The notes under the pieces are model-generated. The model ran no database searches and was not told where the DNA came from. It was given only the letters and a program-made list of their open reading frames with translations. Positions 2,475-54,887 of a DNA stretch of 64,000 nucleotides are shown here, one piece after another; position 1 is the first letter of the stretch; every line of letters starts with the position of its first letter. Source of the DNA: Polyangia bacterium (GTDB taxonomy: Bacteria > Myxococcota_A > Polyangia > Nannocystales > Nannocystaceae). Location: positions 147,599-211,598 of the forward strand of contig JAUIFF010000001.1 of the NCBI GenBank assembly GCA_030429545.1. The letters are read 5' to 3'. The translations under genes and the position numbers were made by a program.

Positions 2475-2529
2475 GCACTCGGCGCTTTGCACCCGAAGGT
2501 CGTTTAAGTCGAGGACGACCGCGAGCTTG

Positions 2530-8738: not shown

Positions 8739-9024
8739 TTGCACGCACACCGAGTGTCACCGCAGCTCTCGCAGTTGCGGTGGCATCTCAATTGGTTTTT
8801 TCGCGTCACGGCCAATCTACACGTGAAACGGGCATGGGCAACCTCACTAGTTTTTTCTCGATAAAGTTGGGCATCAGCGGTTGCGAAAATCTGAGTCGAT
8901 CGCAAGGTTCCGCCCGTGGCAACGCCGGCCAAACACCCCACCGGCCCCGATCGCTCGCCACACAAGTTTAGAGAGACCCCTTCGACGCGAACCGTGGCGT
9001 TGAAGCCCTGAAAGGACATCGAAA

Positions 9025-10944
<1,920 letters not shown>

Positions 10945-33297: not shown

Positions 33298-36279
33298 GTG
33301 ATCCGCGTGATGCCAAACGATGTGATGCCCATGGCAACAAGCTCGAAGAAGTCTTCCGCGAAAAAGGCCACCAAGAAAGCGGCCAAGAAGACCGCCAAAA
33401 AGAAGGCGGCCAAAAAGACGGCTAAGAAGAAGACCGCAAAGAAAAAAACGGCCAAGAAGAAGACCGCAGCCAAGAAAAAGACTGCGAAGAAAAAGACGGC
33501 CAAGAAAAAGACCGCAGCCAAGAAAAAGACGGCGAAGAAAAAAGCGGCCAAGAAGACCGCCAAGAAAAAGGCGGCCAAGAAGAAAACCGCGAAAAAGAGC
33601 TCGAAGTCAGCGGTCGGCAAACAACTGGTCATCGTCGAGAGCCCCGCCAAGGCGAAAACAATCAACAAGTACCTCGGCAACGACTTTGTTGTGCAGGCCT
33701 CCGTCGGGCATATCCGCGACCTCCCAGCCCGTGCGCCAAAGGGCAGCAAGATGCCGGTGCCCGGGGTCGACCTCGAAAACAACTTTGAGCCGACCTACGA
33801 GGTTTTGCCGAGCAAGACCAAGACCGTCAACGAGCTCAAGAAGCTGGCAAAAAACGCCGACGAAGTGTGGTTTGCCACTGACCTTGACCGCGAAGGGGAG
33901 GCGATTGCCTGGCACCTGTCGCAGGAACTTGGGATCGATCCGTCGGCGGCCAAGCGCGTCGTGTTTAACGCGATCACCGAAGAGGCTGTCACGCGGGCTT
34001 TTGCCAAACCCCGGGCGATCGACGAGAACAAAGTCAATGCCCAGCAGGCCCGGCGAATCCTCGACCGCCTCGTCGGCTACCTAGCCTCGCCGCTGCTGTG
34101 GAAGAAAGTGGCCCGCGGACTGTCGGCCGGTCGCGTGCAGTCGGTCGCCGTGCGTTTGATTGTCGAGCGCGAACGCGAGATCGACGTGTTTGTCCCGTCC
34201 GAGCGCTGGCAGGTTACGGCCCGGATCTGCAGCGACCCGAGCCAGAGCACCGCCCTCGCCAAGGCCTGGTCGGAGTTCATCGCCACTGTCGACGAAAAGG
34301 GAAGGGCGCCGACCAACAAACGCCGGAACGCGTGGATGGCCAAACAACATGCCCTCCGCGCTGAGCTGCACGAGTTTGAAGGAAAGCGGTTTTCGCTTGG
34401 GTGCCCGGCCGATGACCCCAAGGACCTGTCGGCCGAGATCAAGCGCATCGCCGAGGCCGTTGGGCTCGACGACGTCGCGGTGGTGACAACCGAGGATGAG
34501 TCGGGCAAGGGGCCGGCCAAGTACAAGCGCGTGGTGGTTGGCAAGCCGCTGGCGACCGCCCGCTACCAGGTCGATGCGATCGAAACCCGCAAGACCTCAT
34601 CGCGCCCGTCCGCACCGTTCATCACCTCGAGCCTGCAGATCGCAGCTTCGACGCGCCTGGGCTTTGCCGCCCAACGGACCATGCGAACGGCCCAAAGCCT
34701 GTACGAAGGCGTGGCGATTCCGGGGGCGGGCCAGGTCGGTCTCATTACCTACATGCGTACCGACTCGACCAACCTGTCCGGAGAGGCACTCGGCCAGATC
34801 CGCGAGTTTATCACCAAGACCTACGGCGACGAGTTTTTATCGGCCAAGCCCAACGTGTTTAGTTCGTCCAACAAGGACGCACAGGAGGCCCACGAGGCGA
34901 TTCGCCCGACCGATGTTTCCCGCACCCCCGAGTCGGTTCGCTCGGCCCTCACCGAAGAACAGTTCAAGCTCTACGACCTGATCTGGCGGCGGACCGTGGC
35001 TTCGCAGATGCCCCCGGCGCAATGGGACGCGACCAGCGTGTTTTTTGTCCGCAGCGACAAACCGACCAAGGTTCGCCTCAAGTGCACCGGCCGCTCCCTC
35101 GCCTTCGCCGGCTTTTACAAGGTTGCCGGTGTGCCGATCGACTCCGACGAGCAGACCCTGCCGGCCTTCCAAAAAGGCGACACGCTCGGTCTGTTTACCG
35201 TCGAGCCCGAGCAAAAGTTTTCAAACCCGCCGCCGCGCTACACCGAGGCTTCGCTGGTCAAAACCCTCGAAGGCGAGGGGATCGGCCGGCCGTCGACCTA
35301 CGCCTCGATCATCCAGGTCATCCAAGATCGCAACTACGTCGAGCAACTCGATCGCCGGTTTTATGCGACCGACTTGGGAGAGGTCGTCACCGACAAACTC
35401 GTCGAGGCGTTCAACGAGCTCATGAACGTTGGCTACACCCGCGAGATGGAGCAACAGCTCGACGGGATCGAGGCCGAGGGCAACGACTGGAAGCGGATGC
35501 TCGAGAAGTTCTACAAAGTCTTCTCGCGCGACCTAGAGACCGCCCACGAAAACCTGACCCACGCCAAGGCCGAAACCCAGCAAGCGCCCTACGCCTGTCC
35601 CAAGTGCGGGTCGCCGACCTGCTACCGGTTTGGCAAAAACGGTCGTTTTCTGTCGTGCACCGCCTATCCCAAGTGCGACTACGCGGCCCCGATCAACCGC
35701 GAGGGCACGCCGTTGCTACCGGAGCACGTCGACATCGTGTGCCCCGACGACGGCTCTGAAATGGAGTTGCGAAGCAGCCGCTTTGGCCCGTTTATCGCCT
35801 CGGTCAACTACCCAAAGACGGTCTTCGTGATCAACCTCGACCGCAAGGGCAACATCAAATACCCGGCGATTCCCCCGTATGTCACCGAGCTAGAGTGTGA
35901 AAAGTGCGGGGCCCCGCTCAACCTTCGCAACGGCAAACGCGGCCCCTGGCTCGGTTGCTCCAAGTTTCCGAAGTGTCGCGGGCGCAAGAGCTGGAACTCG
36001 CTCGACGACGAAACCAAGACCGAACTTGTCAACGCCTTGACCGAGCACGAAGCCAAAAATCCCCGCCCCGAGTTGCGGCGGCGGGACGGCTCGATCATCC
36101 CCGAGGGCACACCCGCCCAGGACCTCGCGCTACCAGGCCGCGAGGTTGAGCTCCAGATCCATCCAGACTGGGATGCCGACAAGGCCGAGCAAGAAAACGC
36201 GAAGGTCCCAGCCAAAGCCATCGCCCAGGCACGGGCCCAAGCGCAGTCGCAGCAACAGCAGCAACACGCCTCGACCTAG
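33298..36279 (+). CDS. topA: DNA topoisomerase I with N-terminal Lys-rich (AKKT)n extension
   Basis: TOPRIM start (KQLVIVESPAKAKTINKYLG), catalytic domain and C-terminal zinc ribbons (CPKCGSPTCYRF..., CEKCGAPL...). Residues ~14-105 are AKKTAKKKTAKKK repeats. Start at 33298 or M12 at 33331. Confidence 0.9.
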   Translation: MIRVMPNDVMPMATSSKKSSAKKATKKAAKKTAKKKAAKKTAKKKTAKKKTAKKKTAAKKKTAKKKTAKKKTAAKKKTAKKKAAKKTAKKKAAKKKTAKKSSKSAVGKQLVIVESPAKAKTINKYLGNDFVVQASVGHIRDLPARAPKGSKMPVPGVDLENNFEPTYEVLPSKTKTVNELKKLAKNADEVWFATDLDREGEAIAWHLSQELGIDPSAAKRVVFNAITEEAVTRAFAKPRAIDENKVNAQQARRILDRLVGYLASPLLWKKVARGLSAGRVQSVAVRLIVEREREIDVFVPSERWQVTARICSDPSQSTALAKAWSEFIATVDEKGRAPTNKRRNAWMAKQHALRAELHEFEGKRFSLGCPADDPKDLSAEIKRIAEAVGLDDVAVVTTEDESGKGPAKYKRVVVGKPLATARYQVDAIETRKTSSRPSAPFITSSLQIAASTRLGFAAQRTMRTAQSLYEGVAIPGAGQVGLITYMRTDSTNLSGEALGQIREFITKTYGDEFLSAKPNVFSSSNKDAQEAHEAIRPTDVSRTPESVRSALTEEQFKLYDLIWRRTVASQMPPAQWDATSVFFVRSDKPTKVRLKCTGRSLAFAGFYKVAGVPIDSDEQTLPAFQKGDTLGLFTVEPEQKFSNPPPRYTEASLVKTLEGEGIGRPSTYASIIQVIQDRNYVEQLDRRFYATDLGEVVTDKLVEAFNELMNVGYTREMEQQLDGIEAEGNDWKRMLEKFYKVFSRDLETAHENLTHAKAETQQAPYACPKCGSPTCYRFGKNGRFLSCTAYPKCDYAAPINREGTPLLPEHVDIVCPDDGSEMELRSSRFGPFIASVNYPKTVFVINLDRKGNIKYPAIPPYVTELECEKCGAPLNLRNGKRGPWLGCSKFPKCRGRKSWNSLDDETKTELVNALTEHEAKNPRPELRRRDGSIIPEGTPAQDLALPGREVELQIHPDWDADKAEQENAKVPAKAIAQARAQAQSQQQQQHAST

Positions 36280-38830: not shown

Positions 38831-39201
38831 TTGGTCAGCTCGACGAGCTGCTGAAAATCCTCACCGGCGTTGAGCTCGATGTACTCACAGGGCGTGTCGG
38901 TGGCGTTCCAAAAGCAGTGCTCCACGCCCGCCGGTTTGCGCACGAAGCTACCAGCGGGCACGGTGAAGCGAAGTCCTCCCTCGCCGCCAACCTCGAACTC
39001 GAGTTCGCCGGAAATGACATAAACGGCCTGGTCTTCGGATGCATGGGTGTGGGGTGCGAGGAGCTGGTGGGGAACAAGCGTTACCTTCATCGCCGAGAAG
39101 ACACCGCCGGTGTGCTCGGTGCCGACAGCGATATAAACGTGATTACCGACCTTTTTGCCCTGGCCAGGGAGAACGAGGAGATCTTCAACAGTGTGGTTCA
39201 T
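38671..39201 (-). CDS. Cupin-domain protein whose C-terminus is encoded within the tandem repeat
   Basis: 176 aa. Cupin motifs (HTHASEDQAVYVISGELEFEV and PAGVEHCFWN). The last ~55 codons lie inside the 234-bp repeat array, so the C-terminus may be an artefact or variant of repeat expansion. Confidence 0.6.
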   Translation of the reverse strand: MNHTVEDLLVLPGQGKKVGNHVYIAVGTEHTGGVFSAMKVTLVPHQLLAPHTHASEDQAVYVISGELEFEVGGEGGLRFTVPAGSFVRKPAGVEHCFWNATDTPCEYIELNAGEDFQQLVELTNRGPVRAMLNAKKYGVHVNVARVPGMLAKHRLTSVATMNLPWEGVAPPSFGAT

Positions 39202-39290
39202 GGCGTGGCTTCTTCCGTTTGTTTGGAGCAGGTCGCGTACAATCGACCAGCTTTTTCAGGCTAGAGCTTCCCCCTTCGGCTGGCCGCGCG

Positions 39291-40358
39291 ATGGACGACA
39301 AAGACCGAGCTGATGACGCCAACCTGCATGTCCCGTCCATGCTGGCCAATTTGATGACCGCCGCTGCTGCATACGCGGTGCAGCGGGGTGTCTCCCTGGA
39401 GCAGATCGCCGAGGCAGCCGGGCTTGCGCCCAAGACTCTGATCGCTGCCCCCGAGCGGGTGCCCGAGGATGCGGTCTCGCGGATCCTCAACCTGCTCCAG
39501 CAGCGTTTCCCCGATGAGGCGGTGGCCGTTGAGATGGCGGCCGCGGCTCCCTTGCACTTTCTCGGTCCGCTCGCGCCCCTCGTGCGACTCGCACCCAATC
39601 TGCGTGCGGGCCTCGAGATGTTCGTGCACTTCCGCAGCCTGCTGTCCACACGCGCCGTGTTGGAGCTCGTCGAGGCACCGCCCGGACCCATGCTCCGGCT
39701 CGAACACCCGAACGACTTGGAGTTCGGTGGGGTGAGCACCGAGATGGGAATCGCGATGGGCGTGCGGGTGGTCGCTGAGGGCTTTTGCCTCCCCAACGCC
39801 CTGCGCGAAGTATGGTTCGAGCACCTGCCGACGGCGCCGCTCGGCAGGTACACAGAGGCCTTCTGTGTCCCAGTGCGTTTCAGGGCCCCTTGCAATGCAT
39901 TGCTGTTTCACGCCGAGCGGCTCGACGACCCCGTCGACACGGTCGCCGGTGCACAGCTCCGTGTGCTGCGGGCCCACCTAGAGCTTGTACGACAGCAGCT
40001 CGAGCAACAGGGAGAACCGGCAGAGCTCCGGCGGATCCGCGATGCGGCCGCTCAAAACGCAGCCCGCCGGGAGTACGGCGCGGCAGCACTCGCCCGTCGT
40101 CTGGGCATGAGCCTGCGGACGCTGCAGCGGCGTGTGGACGCGCTGGGCACCTCGGTCCGCTCGCTCATCGACGAAGTACGAGCGGCCACCGCCCGCCAGC
40201 TTATCTCCGACCCCGATCTGACTCTCCTCGAGGTCGCGGACGCGCTGGGATACACCACCGAAAGCGCCTTTCGCAGAGCTTTTCGCCGATGGACGGGACA
40301 CAGCCCTGCACACTACCGGCGCTCGCTCGCCGCCAGGCACGAGTCTTCGTCGGGTTAG
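39291..40358 (+). CDS. AraC-family transcriptional regulator
   Basis: Start refined to ATG 39291 (MDDKDRADD...). C-terminal AraC HTH (LLEVADALGYTTESAFRRAFRRWTGHSPAHYRR). Divergent from the cupin gene. Confidence 0.8.
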   Translation: MDDKDRADDANLHVPSMLANLMTAAAAYAVQRGVSLEQIAEAAGLAPKTLIAAPERVPEDAVSRILNLLQQRFPDEAVAVEMAAAAPLHFLGPLAPLVRLAPNLRAGLEMFVHFRSLLSTRAVLELVEAPPGPMLRLEHPNDLEFGGVSTEMGIAMGVRVVAEGFCLPNALREVWFEHLPTAPLGRYTEAFCVPVRFRAPCNALLFHAERLDDPVDTVAGAQLRVLRAHLELVRQQLEQQGEPAELRRIRDAAAQNAARREYGAAALARRLGMSLRTLQRRVDALGTSVRSLIDEVRAATARQLISDPDLTLLEVADALGYTTESAFRRAFRRWTGHSPAHYRRSLAARHESSSG

Positions 40359-41244: not shown

Positions 41245-41886
41245 CTAGTCCACACGAGCCCATCCCCGCGGCCAGCGTTTTTTTCGTCGGCGCAGGGGCG
41301 AGGCTACGCGTAGATCCAGATGTATCATCAAGTACTCGTCGTCGTCGTCGTTGGTGGTTGCGAACCAGGCTGGAAACGATGCCTGGGGCTCGGGTTGTCC
41401 AAACTCTAGAGGGTGGGCTTTCAACCCCCGGTACATCTTTCCGGTAGCTCCTGGCGGCAGCGTTTCGGGCAGGCCTTGGAGGACAAACAATTTGCGGGAT
41501 GGATGTTCGGCAAACCTGAACGCACACACCAGTAGTCGGCACTTCCTGTCAAAGCTGACCCAAATGTACCGTCGCCCATCGATGTGCTTGGTCGCCAAAA
41601 TTTTTCCTCGCACCCGGCGGCCGTAGGTCGAGAGCAGCGAGCGTTCGGTGTGGGTTAGGTGTAGCCGGCCATCGACTCGTGCTTCGCTGTCGAGGGGGGC
41701 CCCGTGTTCGAGACGAATGCGATGACTCAACAGAACCCGAATACGCTTTTGCCCCCCATCGACGGCCTGAACCTGTTGAAGATAGGCCCGGGTCAAGTCG
41801 ACTCGGTGTCCACAAGCACTGGCGAGCAACGCAGCAGCGATGGCGGCTAGCAGGCCAAAATAGTGATTTATTAGTTGAGTGTGCAT
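41245..41886 (-). CDS. Hypothetical secreted protein
   Basis: Start refined to MHTQLINHYFGLLAAIAAALLASACG (signal peptide). 213 aa with an acidic DDDDE near the C-terminus. No domain recognised. Confidence 0.5.
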   Translation of the reverse strand: MHTQLINHYFGLLAAIAAALLASACGHRVDLTRAYLQQVQAVDGGQKRIRVLLSHRIRLEHGAPLDSEARVDGRLHLTHTERSLLSTYGRRVRGKILATKHIDGRRYIWVSFDRKCRLLVCAFRFAEHPSRKLFVLQGLPETLPPGATGKMYRGLKAHPLEFGQPEPQASFPAWFATTNDDDDEYLMIHLDLRVASPLRRRKKRWPRGWARVD

Positions 41887-41958
41887 GATTCCTAGGCGAG
41901 GCTTTGTGGATACAATAAGGTCGCGGTTGGCTCGGTGGCGACGATGGTGCGTGCCGTA

Positions 41959-42125
41959 CAGGGGCACTTGGGGCGGGCGTGACAGATTAGGAGGTTTGGC
42001 GGCATTCCACTGGTTAGTGGGCGTGACAGTGTGGGAGGACTGGTTTTGGTCACATTTTGCAGCTTCTGGTGGGCGTGACAGCGCGTGGGAGGACCGGTTT
42101 TGGCAGCACTCCACGGGTTTAATGT
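41959..42125. repeat. Three tandem ~52-bp repeats each carrying GGGCGTGACAG
   Basis: gggcgtgacag-(3-5 nt)-ggagg-(2-3 nt)-ggttttgg at ~41966, 42011 and 42063. Lies between the tagH stop (42150) and the start of the 41886(-) gene, i.e. in that gene's promoter region. Confidence 0.75.
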
Positions 42126-42149: not shown

Positions 42150-45100
42150 TCAAAACTCGCCAGGCTGCCAGTCGAGCTCCGCAGACGAGTTGGCTTCGGG
42201 GTTGACTGTTTGGACCAGTAGCGATGCGGTTGCGCCCACCAGTGTGCTGCCCGTGAGTCTGAGCGGTGACCTTCGTCGCCGCGTCTGTGTCATTTTTGTT
42301 CGTTCCGAAGTGTGCACAGTGAGTTGTTCTTCGAGGACTGGCTCGCCAGTGTCAAAAACGACAGCTCGTTCGAGCTCGAGGACCCATTCGGAGTGTGGAG
42401 GTTGGTAGTGCACCGTTCGCGTAAAGGTTGCCGGGCGGACACAGCCCTCCTGCGTAGGTGTGGCACCAACGACTAGCTCAGGGGTGTAAAGCTTCTCGCC
42501 GCTTCGCACGAGCAGGGTAAATTCATCACGGCATCTCGTTGTTGCAAGTGCATCGATGCATCGACGTGTCGAGAGCACAAAGTAGTCGGCAGACTGACCA
42601 GGAAAGAACTCGATTGCGGTCACTGCGGCAGCCGCCCGCATCGAACCTAACGCGCGTACTCGAAGCTCGCGCGACGAAACCTCAACCAGCGCGACTGGGC
42701 CGAGCCCCTCACCGTGGATTGTTGCCAACTGGAGCCATACCAATTCAAGCCCGGGAGCTGCGTGTGAGCGGGTAACCCGACTGGACTTTTCGATACCAAC
42801 TTCGGGGTACTCAAACTCGATGTTGGGGTCGCAGGTGTCGGTGGGTGCAGGCCACACAAACAGCTCTCCAGTACAGTCCAACAGTTTTCCGGGAGCAGAC
42901 TGAAACTGACCGTGGGTTTCCGGGTAGCTGCGCGCAAGCAGTTCGTACCAGTGTGTATCTACAATATCGTCCGAGCTCTCGGGGAGCGTATGGGCAAACG
43001 TGAGTTGGCAAAGAGGGGCGTTCGTCGGCTGGCTCGGCGGCGGGGAGCAAGCTGCAAGGACCATCAACAGGAACAACAAGATCGCCGCGGGAAGGTTCTT
43101 ACCAGTAGGAGCGGGTGTGTTTGCGAACTGTGTCGGTGATTGTTGTTCGCTATCTGGCACCCTCCGCGTGCCGAAGTCGGCAGGCTCTACAGGTGTTTTT
43201 GGAGATTGTGTCGGGGGTGCATCTTGGACACTCGGTCTCCCAAATGTGACGTGCTTTACGGGTATGTTTAGGGGTTGTGTCGGGGGCTCGTCTCGAACAC
43301 TCGGTCTCCCGAATATGACAGGCTTTTGCGGGAACTGTGTCGGAGGTTCATCTCGAAGGTTCGGTCTAGCGAATGTGACAGGTGTTACTAGGGGTTGTGT
43401 CGAAGGTTCACCTCGAACACTCCGTCGAGAGAATGTGACGGGCTTGACAGGTGTCTGCGGGGACTGTGTCGGAAGTTCATCCCGAACTCTCGGTCTCCCG
43501 AAGGGCTGGACAGGCTCGACCAGGGTTTGTGTGACGTCTCCTGTCGGGAGACTTACTTTGGAGCGTTGTGGTGGGGCACCGGGGGGCTGAACGGGCTCGA
43601 CCAGAGTTTGTGTGGCGTCTCCTGTCGGGGCACTTACTTTGGAGCGTTGTGGTGGAGCACCGGGGGACTGGACAGGCTCGACCAGGGTTTGTGTGACGTC
43701 TCCTGTCGGGCCATCTACTTTGGAGCGTTGTGGTGGGGCACCGGGGGACTGAACGGGCTCGACCAGAGTTTGTGTGGCGTCTCCTGTCGGGCCACTTACT
43801 TTGGAGCGTTGTACTGGGCCGCCGGGGGGCGGGTGCCACACCTGTGGGTGCTCGCCATCTGCAACCTCCCCAAGTGTTTGAGTGACATCGCCTGCGGCCG
43901 TCGTGTCGTGGGGGCGATCCGGCAGCAGGCAGGCAGGTCGCTTGTGGGTTACCGAGTCTTCGCCTGCGGTGCGTGGGCGGTGAGCGAGGTCGCCAACCGA
44001 AACCGGCAAAAACCGACGGGAGTCAGTCGTGTGGTACAAACGCCCGCAGATCGAAGTATATGCATTTGCAAAGTTTTTGCCAAGGAGTGCACGGTTGAGC
44101 TCCTCGTCCTGCAGTAGTTGGGCAAGCCGACGCTTAAACAGTGCCCAGCGGGCGTGCACGCGCAATGGCCAGAGTTTCCATGGAATCGTCAGTCGCCCAA
44201 GTCGAATCGCGGTTTTTCTTAAACGCCTATCGAGGGCCTTGGGTGACAAACTGTTGAGCACTGCCCGAACGCTTCCCCGCAACCCTCCCAGCAACCCTAG
44301 CTGATGGGCCATCAGGGTTTTGTAGGCTTGATTCAGTGCTTGCAGTCGCGGAGCATTGGTACCCTTAGGATCGTATAAATAGCGTAGGACATCGTTGGGG
44401 TCCTTGGGGTGGGCAAGCGGGTTATTTGCCTGAAATGGCACAACATGGGCATGCCCGTGGGCGAAGTCGATAGCTCCATCGTGCAACCCGACCAGTGCCC
44501 GAGCGTGGGCACGGGCAACTGTCACAACCCGGGTTACAAACGCCGCAATTTCATCGGAGGTTTCGAGGTTTGTCTGATTCCCGGTGAGCTCGCGGGCAAG
44601 CCAGCGTAGCGCACGTCCCGAAACGACATCTCGGTGGTGCGTAAATCCGGTTGCTTCGGGGCGTGAGCGACTTGGACCGCTTGGACCACTTGGACCGCTT
44701 GGACCACTTGGGCCACGACACGGGCCCATCGAGCGAAAGGCCGGTTCTTTCGCCAGGACCGGAAGCGACTGGCGAAGTTGGGTAAAAACCTCGTGTTGCT
44801 GCGCAGGCGTCAAGTCTGCAGTTTGCTGCCGAAGTTTGGCCAAAAGTTGTTCGCAAGCTCCAAGATACTCATTGTAAAGCGGGGTGAGAGTCTCCAGGAT
44901 GCTGGCGTTCGTTCGCGATGGACGACGCCATACCGTTGTCGGTTGGGCTTCGCAGTGCACGTCGGATGGGCTGGGTTTGTCCGTCGACCACAGCATCGTT
45001 GGCTCGCTGGGCTTCGGCGCACCCATTGCCGAGCGGAGCTCCCGTTGCAGGCGTTGCGCATGGCAGTTTTCATTGGCCGTAAGCAGCTCGCCCGGCCCCA

Positions 45101-45401
45101 GCTTGCGACTGATTGCCAGGCGTACGGGACCAAGCGTGAGCTGTGAGCTCGTTGTCAACTGGTAGGGGTTGTTTGCGGAGAGTGGGCGACCATCGAGGCG
45201 GCTGCCATTGGCTGAGTCGAGGTCGGTATACTCAACCCAGTTGCGCGAAAAATTGACGACTCCATGTAGTTGAGAAACATAGGGGGAGTTGACAACAATA
45301 TCGTTGCAAAGGTTGCGGCCGATCGAGACCGGGGAGTGCGTAAATCGCAACCGCCGCTCTAGTACTCCGTCAGGTGAATAAATATGAATATACAGATGCA
45401 T
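42150..45401 (-). CDS. tagH: T6SS-associated FHA-domain protein (TagH/Fha-like) with repeat region, TM segment and large C-terminal domain
   Basis: 1083 aa. N-terminal FHA domain (RFTHSPVSIGRNLCNDIVVNSPYVSQLHGVV...DLDSANGSRLDGRPL). Four 28-aa tandem repeats (QRSKVSGPTGDATQTLVEPVQSPGAPP). Pro-rich segment, TM helix LPAAILLFLLMVLAAC, then a ~330-aa C-terminal domain. Last gene of the hcp-tssEFG operon. Confidence 0.75.
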   Translation of the reverse strand: MHLYIHIYSPDGVLERRLRFTHSPVSIGRNLCNDIVVNSPYVSQLHGVVNFSRNWVEYTDLDSANGSRLDGRPLSANNPYQLTTSSQLTLGPVRLAISRKLGPGELLTANENCHAQRLQRELRSAMGAPKPSEPTMLWSTDKPSPSDVHCEAQPTTVWRRPSRTNASILETLTPLYNEYLGACEQLLAKLRQQTADLTPAQQHEVFTQLRQSLPVLAKEPAFRSMGPCRGPSGPSGPSGPSGPSRSRPEATGFTHHRDVVSGRALRWLARELTGNQTNLETSDEIAAFVTRVVTVARAHARALVGLHDGAIDFAHGHAHVVPFQANNPLAHPKDPNDVLRYLYDPKGTNAPRLQALNQAYKTLMAHQLGLLGGLRGSVRAVLNSLSPKALDRRLRKTAIRLGRLTIPWKLWPLRVHARWALFKRRLAQLLQDEELNRALLGKNFANAYTSICGRLYHTTDSRRFLPVSVGDLAHRPRTAGEDSVTHKRPACLLPDRPHDTTAAGDVTQTLGEVADGEHPQVWHPPPGGPVQRSKVSGPTGDATQTLVEPVQSPGAPPQRSKVDGPTGDVTQTLVEPVQSPGAPPQRSKVSAPTGDATQTLVEPVQPPGAPPQRSKVSLPTGDVTQTLVEPVQPFGRPRVRDELPTQSPQTPVKPVTFSRRSVRGEPSTQPLVTPVTFARPNLRDEPPTQFPQKPVIFGRPSVRDEPPTQPLNIPVKHVTFGRPSVQDAPPTQSPKTPVEPADFGTRRVPDSEQQSPTQFANTPAPTGKNLPAAILLFLLMVLAACSPPPSQPTNAPLCQLTFAHTLPESSDDIVDTHWYELLARSYPETHGQFQSAPGKLLDCTGELFVWPAPTDTCDPNIEFEYPEVGIEKSSRVTRSHAAPGLELVWLQLATIHGEGLGPVALVEVSSRELRVRALGSMRAAAAVTAIEFFPGQSADYFVLSTRRCIDALATTRCRDEFTLLVRSGEKLYTPELVVGATPTQEGCVRPATFTRTVHYQPPHSEWVLELERAVVFDTGEPVLEEQLTVHTSERTKMTQTRRRRSPLRLTGSTLVGATASLLVQTVNPEANSSAELDWQPGEF
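43490..43840. repeat. In-frame 84-bp tandem repeats (4 copies) inside tagH
   Basis: DNA repeats gctcgaccagggtttgtgtgacgtctcctgtcggg...ctttggagcgttgtggtgg encode the 28-aa repeat. Likely length-variable. Confidence 0.8.
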
Positions 45402-45403
45402 CG

Positions 45404-46288
45404 CTACTCCGGGTACCCTGTGAAGACCTTACTAGTGGGTGTGTGGGGAAGTTTGGTGCGCGACAGCCAGCTACGACCAAGGACGAGTTTGCCGACTTGC
45501 TGGTCGGAGCTGGCGAGGCTGCTTGGATAGACAGATACTCGTAGTGGGACGGTTTTCCCGGTGAGGAGCCGGCACTGCTTCGCCAGCGACTCACCAGCGA
45601 GCTGGTCAAAGATCTCACAGATACGGTCGACGGGCACGGCCGTGAATGTGATGGACAACCCCTCGAGCTGCTCGTGGCCAGAGCCTAGGCGAGCACAACC
45701 CAAGCGTATTTGCCCTAACCGGTGTGTTTGCCTGTGTTTGCCCGTTTGAATGCGGAGAGTTTGGTGCTCGACTCGGACCTTCCACCCGCGATTGCGAAAG
45801 TAGGTTGTCACCATCCAAATAAGTGCCCGCCGACCGCGACGTGCCCGGAGCCCGAGCTGAACGGCGAGTTCGAATCCCGGGAAGTCCACATCACAATGGC
45901 GAACGCTCGTAAATCCTGCTGCGCACAAAAACCGGCTTTGCCAGCGATCGACGGCTCCGCCCGTACACGGCTGTAGTGCTCGCACCGTGGTGACAAGCGA
46001 TACAACGAGATGTGTGTGGATGGCATCCAAGATGGCGCGGGTGGTGGGGCAATTACGTGCGGTCTGCTCGAGCAGCTCACAGAAGTCGGGTGCTAAGGGA
46101 CTGCTTTCTCCGGTGAGTGCAAGGAGCGGAGTAGAGACCGTGTACTCGGGGGACTCTTGCATGTGCCAGTCTGTTGTAGGGAACGCCTGACCCCGCGTGG
46201 TCACCCGCACTTTACGGCCGGACACGATGGCGCTAAACAGCGAAGGCCGGTTGAGACCCCGTCGAAATTTCATCTTGGCACTGTGCAT
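45404..46288 (-). CDS. tssG: T6SS baseplate subunit TssG (by synteny)
   Basis: 294 aa. Starts 5 nt after the tssF stop. Position and size fit tssE-tssF-tssG order. Sequence-level confirmation not possible by eye. Confidence 0.55.
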   Translation of the reverse strand: MHSAKMKFRRGLNRPSLFSAIVSGRKVRVTTRGQAFPTTDWHMQESPEYTVSTPLLALTGESSPLAPDFCELLEQTARNCPTTRAILDAIHTHLVVSLVTTVRALQPCTGGAVDRWQSRFLCAAGFTSVRHCDVDFPGFELAVQLGLRARRGRRALIWMVTTYFRNRGWKVRVEHQTLRIQTGKHRQTHRLGQIRLGCARLGSGHEQLEGLSITFTAVPVDRICEIFDQLAGESLAKQCRLLTGKTVPLRVSVYPSSLASSDQQVGKLVLGRSWLSRTKLPHTPTSKVFTGYPE

Positions 46289-46293
46289 GTTGA

Positions 46294-47949
46294 TTATAAG
46301 TGGAATTGGATGTTGTCGCGTAAACCCGTCACACGAACCTCGCACTCAACCTGGGTAGCGAATGAAACAGAGTCCGCAATCAGCACCTGAAGCACTCGGG
46401 AAAACACCCACGCATCGCCCCTACCTGCGAGGCATTCACTGGCGAGTTGAACCCTACACATTAAGACCTGTCTCACCTGCCCCCGGATGGCGCGGTAGAC
46501 AGGTTCGAATTCAGAGCGCTGAATAGCGGCGGCGAGTTTGAGCCCATGCGACCCGGGAACCATGAGTTTGATAGCCTGATCGAGCAAAGATTTCGACAGT
46601 TGAGCTGATTGCCGGCGGGCGTGCCATCCGAGGAGGTCCCAAGTTGGCCCGTAGTCGACGCACGGGGCGAGCCCGCGACTGACACGGGAAATGTTGGTCG
46701 CCGCGAGCATGGGTGGTGTATTCGCTGTGGGAACACAAATATCGCCGGTGCGAAGCTTGTCGAGGGCCTGGGGAGACGTTTGGCATAGGAGCTCCGTTGA
46801 AATTACATCTCCCGGCTCAAGGCTGCCCGAGGGCTCGAGCTGCAGTACCAAAAACGGCTCCCCGGGGAGGCGGGCAGTTGTATAGCGCCCAGCACATGCG
46901 TCTTTCGTCTCGTGTTGACGAGCGGGCAACCCCCGCACAAGAGGGAGGCGACCACGACTCGCGGGCCGCGAGACCGAGGCTTCCCGCACTGCAAACACCC
47001 GCGTATTTTCTCGAGTGGGCTCGAGGCAGTATTCGTGGCAATGCTCGACCATGGTGATCGGCTGTCCGCCGACCGCAAATAGGTTGACTGCTGGTACACA
47101 ACCGACGCGGAGAAAGTCTCGAAGTCCGTGTGCGCCCGAAGGTGTAGGGTTGTGGGAGAATAGCCGGAATTCGAGACTCTGGCCCTCTAGTTGTGTGAGT
47201 TGTTGCAGGCCATCGAGCTCAAAAAACAACAGGCTTTCAGGAAGGGCCGCGTACTGTTGCAGCAGCCGAAGAGCGTCTGGATACTCTGTGAGTTCAAAGT
47301 CGAGTGGTTGTAACTGACGGGTTTTGACTGTCTGAGCGGGTAGCACTCCCGCAGGTTCACCATCGATGAAGTACTCGACTTTGCAGGTGCGCCGGGTAAT
47401 GTGTTCGAAGATCGTTGCCGCGAGTCGATAGGGTCCGGCAACAAAGAACTCGATCGAACGGCTTGAAAACCGTTGCCGAGACAGGGCCAAACAGATCGAA
47501 AGATACGCTTGCCCATGTTGTTTGTGGACGAACTCGGTCGAAACTACCTCGATGTCGGGCACCGTGATGGGACGAGTTGTTGCAAATCGGCAGGACTCCG
47601 TACGTTGGTGCGAGGTTGCAACTTCCACACCTGCGGGCACGCCGAGCGCTCTACCTGCCGCCCCCCCACGTGGTTGAAACTCAAGTACTGTGATTGCGGG
47701 CAGCCCCCGGATGTAGTCCGGTGCGAACATCTCGGCTTGTTGATAGGCGAGCAGGCTACTTTCGATGGCGACACGCTGTTGCAGCGTAGCTGTTAGGTAG
47801 GCGACGCCCTGCAGTAGCTGCCGGATCTCGGGTCGGTAATTGTCTGGGGTTGCAAGGCCATGCGCGCTGTCGGGGAACTGTTCACCAAATCGGCGTGCAT
47901 CACCTGAGAGCTTCTCCAGCTCAGCGAGATATTGTTGCTCGAGTTTCAT
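46294..47949 (-). CDS. tssF: T6SS baseplate subunit TssF (ImpG/VasA family)
   Basis: 551 aa. N-terminus YLAELEKLSGDARRFGEQFPDSAHGLA...PEIRQLLQGVAYLTATLQQRV matches the conserved TssF N-terminal pattern (YL.EL..L...F...P..A..L...DP.VERLLEG.AFL). Confidence 0.75.
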   Translation of the reverse strand: MKLEQQYLAELEKLSGDARRFGEQFPDSAHGLATPDNYRPEIRQLLQGVAYLTATLQQRVAIESSLLAYQQAEMFAPDYIRGLPAITVLEFQPRGGAAGRALGVPAGVEVATSHQRTESCRFATTRPITVPDIEVVSTEFVHKQHGQAYLSICLALSRQRFSSRSIEFFVAGPYRLAATIFEHITRRTCKVEYFIDGEPAGVLPAQTVKTRQLQPLDFELTEYPDALRLLQQYAALPESLLFFELDGLQQLTQLEGQSLEFRLFSHNPTPSGAHGLRDFLRVGCVPAVNLFAVGGQPITMVEHCHEYCLEPTRENTRVFAVREASVSRPASRGRLPLVRGLPARQHETKDACAGRYTTARLPGEPFLVLQLEPSGSLEPGDVISTELLCQTSPQALDKLRTGDICVPTANTPPMLAATNISRVSRGLAPCVDYGPTWDLLGWHARRQSAQLSKSLLDQAIKLMVPGSHGLKLAAAIQRSEFEPVYRAIRGQVRQVLMCRVQLASECLAGRGDAWVFSRVLQVLIADSVSFATQVECEVRVTGLRDNIQFHL

Positions 47950-48883: not shown

Positions 48884-49077
48884 GGGAGAGTGATGATTCA
48901 GGTGCTTGAAGGTGTCAAACAAAAAATCCGAACTTTTTGATGTCCTAGATGCCGTCCTGTATTCGGGACAACGGGCCAGCGCTCCCTGATGAGGTGTGAG
49001 GTGATGTTTATAAGTGTTTGAAAATATAGAATTTGAATCTTGGTTTGAGAGTTGCTTGCATGGAAGTGGAGCAGACA
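48884..49077. promoter_or_regulatory. Divergent T6SS promoter region (hcp operon leftwards, tssJ operon rightwards), locally AT-rich
   Basis: 194-bp intergenic region between divergent operons. GC content visibly lower (tgtttgaaaatatagaatttgaatcttgg...). Confidence 0.5.
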
Positions 49078-49629
49078 ATGAAAGTAAATCTAGGTTCATG
49101 GCAAACACGTTTGAGGCGAGTGAAGTACCTCTATCTTATCGTGGGTACTTGTATTTCTTGTGGCCAGATTCAGGAGGCCGCTGTAGAGTCCCCTGCTTGT
49201 TCGGAAGAGCGGCGAGTGTTGCGGCTGCAGCTACACACGGGGGAACATATTAACCGTAGTCAATCAGGGCAGTCACTCCCGGTTCGGGTCACCGTGATTC
49301 AAAGCGAGTCCTCTCTATTGCCGTATGTTTTAGAGAAAGCTCTACAGCCGAGGGACATCCGCGATGTCGAGGAAGTTCTCGATACCCAAACGGTAACGCT
49401 ATATCCAAACGACGAATTCGTGCTTGAGGTGCCTCGTGAAGATGCCTCCGGCGTCGTAGCTGTGGCAGCTGAAGTTCGTGCTCCCCGGGGTGTTGCCTGG
49501 TTTGACGAGGTCGAGCTCGACAGCGACGGCTCCTGTCAGCCGACGAGCGTGACATCCGTAGTGAACCTTGATGAAGTCCGGGTCAGCATGACGCCATTTC
49601 GTCGGGACAGGAGTACTGGTAATGATTAG
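49078..49629 (+). CDS. tssJ: T6SS membrane-complex lipoprotein TssJ (putative)
   Basis: Start refined to MKVNLGSWQTRLRRVKYLYLIVGTCISCGQ (signal with Cys). ~183 aa. Immediately precedes tssK-tssL-tssM, the canonical position. Confidence 0.55.
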   Translation: MKVNLGSWQTRLRRVKYLYLIVGTCISCGQIQEAAVESPACSEERRVLRLQLHTGEHINRSQSGQSLPVRVTVIQSESSLLPYVLEKALQPRDIRDVEEVLDTQTVTLYPNDEFVLEVPREDASGVVAVAAEVRAPRGVAWFDEVELDSDGSCQPTSVTSVVNLDEVRVSMTPFRRDRSTGND

Positions 49630-50865: not shown

Positions 50866-51504
50866 ATGGTGAGTCTGTTTATTCAAGAAACCTCCCGCGA
50901 ACTGTGCGGAGTTGTTGCGTCTGTCCGGGGTGCTCAGTCGTTGGCCTGTACGCCCGAGGCGATCCGCCAGCTTGTCTTCGAGGCCTACAATAAAAGTCTG
51001 CAAACCGCGATAAGCCTGGGCTCCACCCGTGAGCGGGGGCGAGTTGTACTCTATCCATTTGTTGCTTTGGTCGACGAAGTCTTGTTGCGCGGCCCGGTCG
51101 AATTACGAGAGTACTGGCGAGCGAATCTCCTTCAGGCACGGATCTACGGGAATACGCGGGCAGGTGAGGACTTTTTTACGAGGCTGCGGGCGAGCTCAGT
51201 TCCGGAGGTCCGCTACGCGTATCTGCTCGCGCTTTCGCTTGGGTTTGAGGGAAAGTATGCGGGAGGCGATAGCAGTGAGCTCGTGCGTGAGCGTGAGCGC
51301 CTGTTTCGTCAGTTCGCCGAACGACCAACCCTCCATGCAAACCGAAGCTCGGAGCGACTCCAAAGTTCGCGTGTCGTCAGCCCAAGGTTCGTTGCATTTC
51401 CGGTGGCAGTTCTCGCGTGTGTCCTCATACACATCTACATGTTTCGCCGAGTCGAACAGCAAGTATCGCAATTTTTACAGTTTATCGAACACGTTTATGG
51501 GTAG
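50866..51504 (+). CDS. tssL: T6SS membrane subunit TssL (DotU family)
   Basis: 212 aa. DotU-like core (LYPFVALVDEVLL...YAYLLALSLGFEGKY) and C-terminal TM helix (FVAFPVAVLACVLIHIYMF). Confidence 0.8.
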   Translation: MVSLFIQETSRELCGVVASVRGAQSLACTPEAIRQLVFEAYNKSLQTAISLGSTRERGRVVLYPFVALVDEVLLRGPVELREYWRANLLQARIYGNTRAGEDFFTRLRASSVPEVRYAYLLALSLGFEGKYAGGDSSELVRERERLFRQFAERPTLHANRSSERLQSSRVVSPRFVAFPVAVLACVLIHIYMFRRVEQQVSQFLQFIEHVYG

Positions 51505-51512
51505 AGACAACG

Positions 51513-54500
51513 ATGGTTATCGCAAGTATCGCAATCTTAATTTTACTGCCATGGGTGGGAGCCCTCATTGGTTGGATATCCTTCAAGATGGCAGCGGTGG
51601 TTGCCCTTTTTATCGTTCTGGGCTGCCTAGCGACGATCGGAGGCCGACGGCTGTGGGAGGCTCGTACTTCAAGAAAACTCGAGGTCGAACTTCTCACCAG
51701 CGCGGAGCGACTCGACCAGGACCAAAGCCCAGATGCACAGCTTAAGCTCGAGGAGCTAAGGACATCATTTGCCGGGACAATGCGCGAGCTACGGCAGTCG
51801 CAACTCGGGGGCGGTGGGCGCCGAGCACTCTACGCATTGCCGTGGTACGTCGTGATCGGTCCGCCGGGGGTGGGGAAGACGACGGCGATTGGTCGCAGCG
51901 GGTTGAAGTTTCCGCTGCGCTCCGCAACCTCACCCATACGAGGGATCGGTGGCACGCGCAATTGCGAATGGTGGCTTGCGAACGAAGCAGTCATCATCGA
52001 CACCGCCGGTCGCTATACCGCAGATGTTGAGGACCACGGGGAGTGGCTCGAATTCCTGGGTCTACTCAAGCGCTATCGCGGAAGGGCGCCACTCAATGGA
52101 GTGATTGTCGCGGTGAGTACCGAGCACGTGTACCGGCAAGACGAGGGCGAACTCAGTCGGCACGCCCGGCAGATACGGACCCGAATTGATGAAATCCAAC
52201 GACAATTAGGCATTGTTGTTCCGGTCTACGTCATGCTCACCAAATGTGACCTTTTACCGGGTTTCTCGGAGGTTTTCGGCGAGCTCGAGAAATCAAAGTG
52301 TGATGAAGCATTTGGTGTGACGTGGGACAGCGGCCAGAAGCCGCTTGAAGGTCTGCTAGAACAGGTTCAACACACGTGTCTGACGCGTCTCCAGGAATGT
52401 CCGCGGTTGGAGGACCGCGACCAAATTTATCGCTTCGCGCACAATTTTGGTGCGCTGCTCCACTCCGCTTCCCAGCTGATCGACGAGACCTTTGCGACCT
52501 CCGCGTACGAGGAAAACCCCAGGCTTCGAGGAGTGTATTTCACGAGCGCTCTGCAGGAGGGGAGCCCCATCGACGATGCCCGGGGGAGCCTTGCGCAGGC
52601 TTTCGGAGTGTCGCTCGCCACTAGTGAGGCGAAACCCTCGGTCCAGAGGCAGTACTTTCTACGTAGACTTTTCCCGGAAAAAATCTTCACGGAAGCAGGG
52701 CTTGTCGCCCGTTCAGCTCGACGCAGTCGCCGGCGAGCAACTGTGAGACGTGCAACCGCAATCGCCATGTGTGCGTGCCTCGCAGGACTGTCCCTTGGGA
52801 GTGGTCTGGTTGCCCGCGCGGTTGGCCTCAAGGTACGTGTCGCCGAGCGTTCCCTGGGAGAAGCATCCGTGCTGCTACATCGAGGGCAGCTATCTGAAGG
52901 GTTTCGCGAGCTAGAGCTCTTGCATGATGTCGCACGAGAACCCGCAGCAACCACAAAGGTATTCCCCGAAATATATAGCTCAAGTGCGCTTAAGCGGATC
53001 GTCGCAGGCGTCCGGCAAACACGATTAGAGGCGGTTGCGACTTTTTGTGTGGAACCGGCAATCGATGAGCTGGCCACAGAGTTGCAGGGTCAACCGAGCC
53101 GAGAGCTGCTTGCGGCCATACAATTGCTATTTCACAACACCGAACAGCTGGTGGCATTTCACGATTGGTACCCCTGGCTTGTTGAGCAGGTCGCTAGTCG
53201 GACTATAGATGGCTGCCGTCAGCAGGACGTTGCCTGGTACCTGCGGACGACCCGTGGGAGCTTGGAGCCACCCGAGCAGCTAGACCGGCTGGTTGAGGCC
53301 GCCAAGTCACAGATTTTAACCGCAGAGCAGCAGCTACTCCCCCCACTTTCGCGCCTGTGTGCCGAAACAGACGAGCTCGACATCAGTTTGTCTCAGGTGA
53401 TTCGTGATGATGCAACGGTTGTGAGTGAGGTTGATGTGCCGGGTTGTTTTACCCGGGCTGGTCGGGCGCTCGTCGAGGAGCGACTCGCCGTCTTGCAAAC
53501 GCCTTCCCGGTTTGAAGCGTCGTGGGTTGCACCTACACCCAAGCGCCAGGCAGGGTGGCAGCGAGATCTCAGTGAGCTAGGCGACTTGTATACTCAAACA
53601 TATATTCGGCAGTGGAACGATTTTGTCGAAGGCGTCTCGCTACGAGAGTTCGCGGACGAACAGCTACCTGTTGTACTGCGCGCGTACATGCGGGAGCCGG
53701 GACCTGTCGAGCGCGTATTGAAATTGGTAGAGCAACAAACTCAGTTCGAGCGGGGAACTTCCTTGCAAAAGCTCGCCCTTCCACCTACTCGAAGTTCGGC
53801 GCGCGACACAAAGATTTCGCTGGCTTTCGTGGGTCTACTGTCGCTCGCCAAGGGTGGTGATGACGAACAGGCTTCGCTCGTTAGCCGTCACCGTGAGTTC
53901 ACGACCCGGGCAAGTGACGCTCTGGCAAAGCTAGCAGGCGACCCAGACGCAGCCGACAGTGTTTCGAGTGAACTTCAGGAGCTCGTTGTCGAAACCCAGC
54001 GTTTGGTCGCACAGCATCCCCAGGCGGCGCAGGCTCTCGCCCAACGCCTGCTCGTCGGGCCATTGCGACGAGCCCAAGTCGCGGCGAGTCACTCGAAGGG
54101 TGCCTGGATTCAAAGTCGCTGGTGCGGAGACGTCGTGGCGCCGATCGAGCGGGAGATTCAAAAGAAGTACCCGTTTACTCGAGACACGGACGATGAAGTG
54201 TCTGGCACGGCATTTGCCAAACTAGTCGGCTCACGAGGCTATCTATGGCGGTTTTATACAGAGTCTCTCGTCAGTCTGTTGCCCGAGACAGGTCGTGACG
54301 GTTTTCGTCGAAGTCGGCAGGCAGGCGGGCGTAAGCTGCTACGGAAGTCTATCGAGAGTTTCTACACCTCAGCCCGGGATGTCCAAACGTCGTGGGGTGG
54401 GGGCGAAGCCGAAACGCCGACTCTCGAGCTCGAACTCATGATTCATCCAACCCCGAGTGTCGGGTCCGTTCATCTACAACTGGGCGATAAAAACTACGAG

Positions 54501-54887
54501 TATCACAACGGACAGGAAACATGGCACTACATCAAGTACAGTCCCACGCGATTACCTGCGCGGCTCTCAATCACTGGCAAGAATTTTGAGCAAACAATCT
54601 ACGGCGATGGCGAGTGGAGTTTGCTCCGCCTCCTCGACCAAGGTCGCGTTGTCGAGTCCGATGACAACCAGGTTGTCATTGTCGAGTTTCCGGTGCACGG
54701 ACTATCAAGCGACCACCCGCGGATCTCCATACGCCTGTTGGGAGGCGCTGGAGAGGTCGCCCGCCGCCGAGAGTTGGGCAGCTCCGGTGAGGGGTTGCTC
54801 GGGTTGTTTCGTAACCGAGTCAGTCAGCCTCCAAAGCGTCTGGCGACAAAATCAAAGGGCTGTCATGAAATTGCTGGCGAAGAGTAG
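51513..54887 (+). CDS. tssM: T6SS membrane subunit TssM (IcmF family)
   Basis: Start refined to MVIASIAILILLPWVGALIGWISF (TM helices). Walker A GPPGVGKTT. ~1124 aa. Large periplasmic C-terminal region. Confidence 0.85.
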   Translation: MVIASIAILILLPWVGALIGWISFKMAAVVALFIVLGCLATIGGRRLWEARTSRKLEVELLTSAERLDQDQSPDAQLKLEELRTSFAGTMRELRQSQLGGGGRRALYALPWYVVIGPPGVGKTTAIGRSGLKFPLRSATSPIRGIGGTRNCEWWLANEAVIIDTAGRYTADVEDHGEWLEFLGLLKRYRGRAPLNGVIVAVSTEHVYRQDEGELSRHARQIRTRIDEIQRQLGIVVPVYVMLTKCDLLPGFSEVFGELEKSKCDEAFGVTWDSGQKPLEGLLEQVQHTCLTRLQECPRLEDRDQIYRFAHNFGALLHSASQLIDETFATSAYEENPRLRGVYFTSALQEGSPIDDARGSLAQAFGVSLATSEAKPSVQRQYFLRRLFPEKIFTEAGLVARSARRSRRRATVRRATAIAMCACLAGLSLGSGLVARAVGLKVRVAERSLGEASVLLHRGQLSEGFRELELLHDVAREPAATTKVFPEIYSSSALKRIVAGVRQTRLEAVATFCVEPAIDELATELQGQPSRELLAAIQLLFHNTEQLVAFHDWYPWLVEQVASRTIDGCRQQDVAWYLRTTRGSLEPPEQLDRLVEAAKSQILTAEQQLLPPLSRLCAETDELDISLSQVIRDDATVVSEVDVPGCFTRAGRALVEERLAVLQTPSRFEASWVAPTPKRQAGWQRDLSELGDLYTQTYIRQWNDFVEGVSLREFADEQLPVVLRAYMREPGPVERVLKLVEQQTQFERGTSLQKLALPPTRSSARDTKISLAFVGLLSLAKGGDDEQASLVSRHREFTTRASDALAKLAGDPDAADSVSSELQELVVETQRLVAQHPQAAQALAQRLLVGPLRRAQVAASHSKGAWIQSRWCGDVVAPIEREIQKKYPFTRDTDDEVSGTAFAKLVGSRGYLWRFYTESLVSLLPETGRDGFRRSRQAGGRKLLRKSIESFYTSARDVQTSWGGGEAETPTLELELMIHPTPSVGSVHLQLGDKNYEYHNGQETWHYIKYSPTRLPARLSITGKNFEQTIYGDGEWSLLRLLDQGRVVESDDNQVVIVEFPVHGLSSDHPRISIRLLGGAGEVARRRELGSSGEGLLGLFRNRVSQPPKRLATKSKGCHEIAGEE

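Follow-up and report, generated by a model that had tools for sequence, protein, structure and literature searches.

A tagH gene fused in frame to a putative lipoprotein-precursor gene in a type VI secretion cluster of the Nannocystaceae

Introduction

This article describes an open reading frame (ORF) of a Polyangia bacterium (Myxococcota, Nannocystaceae) in which tagH, encoding a forkhead-associated (FHA) protein of type VI secretion systems (T6SS), is continued in the same frame by a proline-rich linker, a lipoprotein signal peptide and a cysteine-rich C-terminal domain. The ORF lies on the minus strand of a 64,000-nucleotide stretch of contig JAUIFF010000001.1 (assembly GCA_030429545.1, forward-strand positions 147,599 to 211,598), referred to below as the window. 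Judged from its relatives, the ORF arose naturally when tagH was joined in frame to the lipoprotein-precursor gene that follows it in many T6SS clusters of Myxococcota. A preliminary description of the locus, made from the DNA letters and their translations, had presented the product as an atypical FHA protein with a transmembrane helix, and its claims are taken up where the corresponding results are given.

In a 2026 review of T6SS accessory factors TagH is treated as a cytoplasmic secretion regulator; it binds phosphorylated TssL in Agrobacterium, TagF can sequester it, and it promotes assembly (PMC13584744). The accessory lipoproteins listed in that review (TagQ, TagV, TagM1/TslA, TasL, AsaA, TagI and TagU) include none that is fused to TagH, and Myxococcus is not mentioned (PMC13584744).

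Architecture of the fused gene

The features of the gene, all on the minus strand, are the following, with the evidence in brackets.

42150..45401, minus strand: whole fused ORF of 1083 amino acids plus stop, comprising TagH, linker, internal lipoprotein signal peptide and C-terminal lipoprotein domain (ORF listing, domain scans, three-way alignment)
45129..45329, minus strand: FHA domain, residues 25-91, with the phosphothreonine-binding residues G28-R29, S43-x-x-H46 and N65-G66 (PF00498, alignment)
44670..44714, minus strand: (GPS)x5 micro-repeat, residues 230-244, within a 23-residue insertion of the TagH middle region (Tandem Repeats Finder (TRF), period 9/18)
44055..44432, minus strand: T6SS_FHA_C domain, residues 324-449, the C-terminal domain of canonical TagH (PF20232, TIGR03354)
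43101..43985, minus strand: proline-rich linker, residues 473-767, 295 amino acids, presumably disordered (composition, open-frame test, alignment gaps)
43488..43811, minus strand: four tandem repeats of 27 amino acids (81 bp), 'QRSKVSGPTGDATQTLVEPVQSPGAPP', residues 531-638 (TRF, pairwise identities)
43101..43502, minus strand: second repeat family, six units of 20-25 amino acids of the type 'FGRPSVRDEPPTQ..PV..VT', residues 634-767 (TRF, periods 60 and 69)
43047..43100, minus strand: internal lipoprotein signal peptide, with n-region K768, 15-residue h-region LPAAILLFLLMVLAA and lipobox L-A-A-C785 (Kyte-Doolittle scan, homologue alignment, AlphaFold2 (AF2) model)
42153..43046, minus strand: C-terminal domain, residues 786-1083 (298 amino acids), beta-rich, assigned to a T6SS-linked lipoprotein family (profile searches, motif, AF2 model)

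The ORF listing gives ATG as the start codon. The N-terminal part matches the FHA model of Pfam at residues 25-91 (40.1 bits against a cutoff of 20.7) and T6SS_FHA_C at residues 324-449 (56.1 bits against 23.7), and the NCBIfam model of TagH, TIGR03354, covers residues 19-449 (model positions 20-416 of 420) with 68.9 bits, a score under the equivalog cutoff of 120.25 that marks a divergent member. On the strength of these three matches residues 1-449 are taken as a full, somewhat divergent TagH, as the FHA domain and TagH-like region of the preliminary description had suggested. The FHA region also has a weak, sub-threshold Pfam match to the cytoplasmic domain of YscD (PF16697, 26.2 against 33.2). 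The roughly 630 residues beyond the TagH part have no match to a curated family in Pfam or NCBIfam.

The residues predicted to bind phosphothreonine (G28-R29, S43-Q-L-H46 and N65-G66) are invariant in the three fused orthologues considered below (alignment A1). The proposal that the protein acts without the kinase PpkA is unsupported. Pfam searches of the larger ORFs and a six-frame scan for HRDxKxxN revealed neither a Hanks-type kinase nor a PP2C phosphatase in the 64-kb window, but the intact binding residues imply that the FHA domain retains a phosphothreonine ligand. Many Ser/Thr kinases are encoded at other places in the genomes of Myxococcota.

The linker holds 56 prolines in 295 residues, in agreement with the proline-rich stretch reported earlier. 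Only 7 of 20,000 shuffles of the linker lacked an in-frame stop and the other two frames hold 10 and 6 stops, which argues that the linker is translated sequence constrained to remain open. Four perfect in-frame repeats of 84 bp (28 amino acids) had been announced; four copies in frame are indeed present, but the unit is 81 bp and the copies are 80-98% identical in nucleotide sequence (79/81 between R1 and R3, 65/81 between R1 and R4). TRF gives 4.0 copies with 89% matches at period 81, and 95% matches at period 162. The second, six-unit family ('FGRPSVRDEPPTQ...'), the (GPS)x5 tract and the lipobox had been overlooked. Linker length differs between species, as alignment gaps in the three fusions show (about 30, 95 and 295 amino acids, the last in the window), and among them the long linker repeats occur in the window only. 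The linker may have been expanded to 295 amino acids in the window organism by tandem duplication, in two rounds. Both fused orthologues lack the 23-residue insertion that holds (GPS)x5 (gap in alignment A1), and the tract is a second place of repeat-driven length change in the fusion gene.

Fused orthologues

Two relatives were retrieved when the full protein was used as a database query. P0001 (802 amino acids) comes from a metagenome-assembled genome (MAG) named 'uncultured Nannocystaceae bacterium' (loci L001/L002/L006) and is found as well in a separate Logan assembly from SRR15635845, and P0002 comes from a Joint Genome Institute (JGI) metagenome (locus L003). The database entry of P0002 (661 amino acids) is a truncated gene call; the real ORF of L003 spans 1591-4164 (+), has a GTG start and encodes 857 amino acids, including the FHA domain. 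Identity to the window protein is 54% (P0001) and 51% (P0002) in the TagH part and 46% and 33%, respectively, in the C-terminal domain. Both relatives come from syntenic loci, in which tssF, tssG and the fusion are followed, as in the window, by an alpha/beta-hydrolase and a topoisomerase. All three proteins begin with TagH and continue with the linker, a hydrophobic segment that ends in a lipobox-like Cys and a C-terminal domain of about 300 amino acids. The tagH-lipoprotein fusion was found only in the window and these two metagenomic relatives.

That a sequencing or assembly error had created the fusion, a caveat already raised in the preliminary description, or that a recent pseudogenising frameshift had joined two genes, deserved attention since the ancestral genes are adjacent and overlapping and a single base error could mimic a fusion. 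However, the same fusion is present in the window, in the NCBI MAG together with the Logan assembly (L001, L002) and in the JGI metagenome (L003), with linkers that differ; the 295-codon linker is open against the expectation from its shuffles, and both halves keep conserved residues. Recurrence in three independent assemblies at 33-54% identity, two of them independently assembled syntenic orthologues, rules out an artefact, whose residual probability is very small.

The internal signal peptide

In a Kyte-Doolittle scan the sole hydrophobic segment of the whole protein is residues 769-785. It reads K768-N-LPAAILLFLLMVLAA-C785-S, that is, a basic n-region, an h-region of 15 residues and a consensus lipobox of the PROSITE PS51257 type, [LVI][ASTVI..][GAS]-C, and the AF2 model has a helix (7-21) there. 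The single hydrophobic helix noticed at first is thus present, but what had been called a transmembrane helix has the form of a lipoprotein signal peptide. The segment aligns residue for residue, Cys on Cys, with the N-terminal signal peptides of free-standing homologues of the C-terminal domain. The h-regions of the fusions have 15, 15 and 11 residues, those of the free-standing signal peptides 11-20. The lipobox Cys is kept in all three fusions (LAAC in the window, LFAC and LCSC in the others) and basic residues precede each h-region, the orthologues having KR...LFAC and R..R...LCSC.

By this alignment the segment is a retained lipoprotein signal peptide, not a plain transmembrane helix. Because its h-region is not lengthened and aligns with N-terminal signal peptides, it may be lipidated and cleaved and not form a permanent span.

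The C-terminal domain and its lipoprotein family

The Cys-rich C-terminal domain had been noted before, at about 330 amino acids and with several Cys; it measures 298 amino acids after Cys785, and six of its Cys (798, 843, 857, 948, 957 and 987) are invariant among the three fusions. Five of the six are also invariant across the wider family alignment (A3, which leaves out the P0002/L003 orthologue). The AF2 model of the domain has a predicted template modelling score (pTM) of 0.72.

Used alone as query, the C-terminal domain of the window found no homologues. A profile of the three C-terminal domains led to free-standing proteins of about 300-340 amino acids, including Archangium violaceum F0U61_12270, which start with classical lipoprotein signal peptides, e.g. 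'MKRRLLVAALALTTPLVG-C'. The exhaustive profile search, covering 1.84 billion representatives with a profile that includes the window sequence, retrieved 345 clusters at 50% identity with E <= 1e-3, 133 of them with E <= 1e-30, and E values reached down to 1e-125. Among the best 150 clusters nearly all proteins have 250-370 amino acids with the domain beginning near the N-terminus, the few that are longer combine an N-terminal lipoprotein signal with insertions or tails, and P0001 is the sole TagH fusion.

A tblastn scan with the family alignment, in a collection of one genome per species, detected 43 loci, almost all from genomes labelled as Myxococcota (Myxococcus, Corallococcus, Pyxidicoccus, Archangium, Vitiosangium, Hyalangium, Citreicoccus, Nannocystis and Anaeromyxobacter); a scan of the same collection with the full-length fusion protein gave no match. 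Most of the 43 loci have an ATG about 17-22 codons ahead of the lipobox Cys, and in the family this Cys lies about 110-120 residues ahead of a G[ED][GA]LGPVALV motif. The C-terminal domain of the window has this motif and the conserved Cys (alignment A3), and is, on these sequence features, a member of a T6SS-linked lipoprotein family that has no Pfam or NCBIfam model, structure or literature.

One of the 43 loci is labelled Comamonas and three belong to MAGs labelled Proteobacteria, and these loci look myxobacterial. The Comamonas one (L021, BNCN01000006.1, 'Comamonas sp. KCTC 72670') carries a Myxococcus-type T6SS operon with a ClpV 80% identical to that of Archangium, and its lipoprotein signal peptide, 'MKRTLQVSAVALSLLSGC', is nearly identical to Myxococcus ones; the genome label looks wrong or the assembly contaminated.

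Two other identities were considered for the C-terminal domain. In canonical T6SS clusters tssJ often follows tagH, and TssJ, like the domain, is a lipoprotein-type exported component encoded in the T6SS cluster. The window has a separate gene for it:

49033..49629, plus strand: TssJ lipoprotein gene (PF12790, 33 bits against a cutoff of 27; matches the TssJ position in L001)

Since this is a bona fide TssJ gene, and the C-terminal domain differs from TssJ in having no sequence or fold similarity to it, the domain was rejected as the cluster's TssJ. An immunity protein was likewise rejected: immunity genes pair with variable effectors, whereas the family gene keeps its place in the core operon from genus to genus, by clpV or tagH and often with overlapping stop and start codons.

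Origin of the fusion from a gene pair

The tblastn maps show two settings for the family gene. In Myxococcaceae and Archangiaceae it closes the operon tssA-B-C-hcp-tssE-F-G-clpV-[lipoprotein]. The T6SS of M. xanthus has been delimited as MXAN_4800-4813, with MXAN_4801 as TssJ (PMC5801462), and from these limits and the gene order of locus L016 the lipoprotein gene that follows clpV appears to lie just outside the set that was studied. At 17 loci, among them those of six species of Nannocystis, of several Anaeromyxobacter, of Hyalangium and M. dinghuensis and of several MAGs, the lipoprotein gene is instead directly 3' of tagH, in a different reading frame. The distance between the tagH stop and the lipoprotein start is -4 nucleotides in 5 loci, -8 in 4 Nannocystis loci and +1 to +34 in 5 Anaeromyxobacter-type loci, the automated start calls of L025, L038 and L048 being unreliable for this analysis.

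Because the unfused genes overlap or adjoin, as a translationally coupled pair, a small indel would merge both ORFs and trap the whole signal peptide within the new protein. The fused lineage is nearest to uncultured Nannocystaceae, and cultured Nannocystis have the adjacent unfused pair.

Topology and processing of the product

The best explanation of the locus, to which a probability of roughly three in four is given, is that tagH fused to a T6SS lipoprotein precursor produces a TagH tethered at the inner membrane, with the Cys-rich C-terminal domain in the periplasm. The cytoplasmic FHA/TagH part would be translated first and the emerging internal signal peptide would then target the chain to Sec as an N-in/C-out signal-anchor, a predicted topology consistent with the basic residues before the segment, the six invariant Cys and the homology to exported lipoproteins. 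The C-terminal domain would be translocated and disulfide-bonded in the periplasm, and the flexible proline-rich linker would tether TagH to the cytoplasmic face of the inner membrane, its 295 amino acids giving TagH reach to the TssL/TssM/baseplate region. Lipidation of Cys785 by Lgt and a cut by LspA (signal peptidase II) would yield a tail-anchored TagH and a mature lipoprotein, in a 1:1 ratio and at one membrane site; the conserved lipobox and short h-region lead us to put the chance of this processing at about even. Cleaved or not, the fusion would enforce co-production and co-localisation of TagH and the lipoprotein at the T6SS membrane complex.

Several points weigh against this explanation. 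In lipoprotein precursors the Cys is sought within about 40 residues of the N-terminus, and here it is residue 785. With only three fused sequences the conservation of the lipobox is statistically weak. A literature search found no case of signal peptidase II acting on an internal lipobox, and we know of no natural precedent for its action some 770 residues from the N-terminus. The C-terminal domain has no PDB fold, Pfam or NCBIfam match, and its AF2 model is of moderate quality (predicted local distance difference test (pLDDT) 72.9, 7 sequences). Finally, where the Nannocystis, M. dinghuensis and Hyalangium homologues have a Lys at position +2, the three fusions have S, S and T. In M. xanthus lipoproteins a +2 Lys is the inner-membrane retention (Lol-avoidance) signal (PMC3222651), and its loss can be read either way.

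One alternative is that the product stays a bitopic inner-membrane protein, in which the segment serves only as a signal-anchor that is never cut and TagH remains covalently joined to the periplasmic domain. This corresponds to the membrane-spanning scaffold of the preliminary description and could pass periplasmic events straight to TagH; any signalling role, including the coupling of an extracytoplasmic signal to firing, is speculative. The loss of the +2 Lys in all three fusions is what one would expect of a domain now kept at the inner membrane by a peptide anchor (PMC3222651). The covalent fusion has also been kept in three lineages diverged to 33-54% identity, the fused gene of the window has lost any usable internal start codon, and the weak YscD match of the FHA region points the same way. 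However, the h-regions are shorter than expected of a stable span and have the length usual in cleavable signal peptides, and the lipobox Cys with its consensus residues at -3 to -1, kept in the three fusions, would be unneeded for an anchor alone. A permanent span is a serious candidate with odds somewhat below even. Of the scaffold first envisaged, membrane association and, by homology, an exported domain probably hold, but the span itself may be cleaved.

A polyprotein split is the other candidate to be taken seriously: Lgt and LspA would process Cys785 to release a mature lipoprotein of the same kind as in unfused relatives and a TagH with a C-terminal signal-peptide tail, and the fusion would be near-neutral in function and tolerated, since processing reverses it. 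It fits the lipobox and the signal-peptide-length h-regions of all three fusions (LAAC, LFAC, LCSC), the position-for-position match to bona fide N-terminal lipoprotein signal peptides and the overlapping stop and start codons in relatives, which make an accidental fusion easy. It also has an analogue in the FbcH cytochrome b/c1 polyprotein of Bradyrhizobium, which is cleaved at an internal signal peptide by leader peptidase. FbcH resembles the window protein in that one ORF yields two parts, one exported and the other in the membrane or on the cytoplasmic side, around an internal signal peptide; it differs in that signal peptidase I is used and not a lipobox and LspA, the proteins are unrelated, and cleavage of the window protein is hypothetical. 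On the other side stand the lack of a precedent in the literature search, the small number of fused sequences and the expansion of the linker, for which a neutral fusion would not obviously account. We consider this outcome a real possibility, if slightly short of an even bet.

Under a third alternative, the lipoprotein would still be made separately from a start near the signal peptide, and the long fusion would be a minor or extra isoform. The orthologous loci offer candidate starts, an ATG exactly 20 codons ahead of the Cys in L001 ('MSSKRTIASIMIILFALLFAC') and, in L003, a GGAGG with a 7-nucleotide spacer and a GTG 24 codons ahead of the Cys. However, the ATG of L001 has no Shine-Dalgarno sequence, and the open frame maintained through long linkers speaks for the importance of read-through translation. 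In the window no ATG, GTG or TTG is usable as an internal start upstream of the signal peptide: the closest GTG, 37 codons upstream, directly abuts its GGAGG, and all TTG codons fall within the h-region. Internal initiation is unlikely there, and improbable as an explanation of the gene as a whole.

Returning to the tethered TagH, a bolder version would have the polyprotein resolved by Lgt and signal peptidase II and both products marking or licensing the site of membrane-complex and baseplate assembly, a tentative proposal that is more probably wrong than right. If the internal lipobox were cut by signal peptidase II, the lipoprotein family would be a functional T6SS accessory component throughout Myxococcota. 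The tether, for its part, would hold TagH permanently by TssL, TssM and the baseplate, the site of TagH/Fha action in studied systems.

Comparison with known systems

The window protein agrees with TagH/Fha1/ImpI/VasC in its FHA and PF20232 domains, its phosphothreonine-binding residues, its place next to tssG in a T6SS cluster and the presence of tagF in that cluster; it differs from them in about 630 extra residues that comprise the repeat linker, the internal signal peptide and the exported domain. Of a canonical TagH one would expect a soluble cytoplasmic protein that works with a PpkA/PppA pair; the window protein has an internal signal peptide and a predicted exported domain, and neither PpkA nor PppA was found nearby. 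With the myxobacterial lipoprotein family it has in common the motif, the conserved Cys, the lipobox spacing and the T6SS-operon context, the difference being that the family members elsewhere are free-standing with an N-terminal signal peptide and the one in the window is fused behind TagH.

The inner-ring proteins YscD/PrgH/EscD of type III secretion systems, likewise parts of a trans-envelope secretion machine, are alike in layout only (a cytoplasmic FHA domain, one membrane segment and a periplasmic C-terminal domain), whereas the C-terminal domain of the window protein is beta-rich with no match to a ring-building motif, and its membrane segment is a lipoprotein signal peptide. From TagQ, TagV, TagM1/TslA, TasL and AsaA the C-terminal domain is set apart only by the absence of Pfam, NCBIfam and PDB matches.

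In its architecture the fused TagH is a new variant, which arose when the adjoining T6SS-linked lipoprotein gene, not recognised until now, was joined to tagH, and the unannotated family, widespread in the T6SS core operon of Myxococcota, is a new candidate accessory component. The fusion links TagH, whose way of promoting assembly is still unclear, genetically to a particular envelope partner, and would be a natural example of a membrane-tethered TagH. An intact lipobox deep in a long polypeptide is moreover a ready-made test of internal-signal processing by Lgt and LspA, and the repeat-expanded tether offers a handle on the reach that TagH needs.

The T6SS cluster and its surroundings

The cluster comprises tssA, tssB, tssC, hcp, tssF, tssG, tssJ, tssK, tssL, tssM, vgrG, tagF and a putative tssE, which has no Pfam match and is assigned by position only. 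Two genes precede the fusion on the same strand, the end of tssG being 2 nucleotides from the fusion start, and one conserved gene follows it:

45404..47949, minus strand: tssF (46294-47949) and tssG (45404-46345), directly upstream of the fusion (PF05947, PF06996)
41248..41886, minus strand: second conserved putative lipoprotein, 213 amino acids, 'MHTQLINHYFGLLAAIAAALLASAC|G', directly downstream of the fusion (conserved position)

tssE and hcp lie beyond tssF/tssG, and tssJ, tssK, tssL, tssM, tagF, tssB, tssC, tssA and vgrG are transcribed divergently from the fusion. No ClpV was found in the window by Pfam searches of the larger ORFs and tblastn with the Archangium ClpV. The interval between tssG and tagH is without clpV in both the window and L001, whereas other Myxococcota have clpV there; in the window lineage ClpV may be encoded elsewhere or absent. 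The longest ORF of TagF (54457-55734, plus strand) overlaps the 3' end of tssM (51417-54887, plus strand) by about 430 nucleotides, and since the TagF_N match starts only at residue 157 the true tagF start is probably much later.

The putative lipoprotein of 213 amino acids falls into no Pfam or NCBIfam family. Its positional counterparts in L001 and L003 encode proteins that are 59% and 53% identical to it, respectively, and relatives with about 30% identity lie a few kb off in the T6SS loci of Nannocystis; the protein probably belongs to the same module as the fusion. The longest ORF at its site, 41245-42114, probably over-extends the true start, and the gene caller of L001 placed an ORF of the opposite strand there.

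An AraC-family regulator (39039-40358, plus strand) lies between this arm of the T6SS cluster and the alpha/beta-hydrolase gene, and is absent from the gene calls of the syntenic regions of L001 and L003; it could be a regulator of the cluster peculiar to this lineage. Topoisomerase I (33298-36279, plus strand) has an N-terminal extension with a sub-threshold match to the histone H1-like HC2 (PF07382, residues 12-122). The genes parB-parA, lon and dnaK, at 2724-4453 (minus strand) and 6327-10944 (plus strand), identify the window as chromosomal DNA, perhaps from close to the origin region, and not a mobile element.

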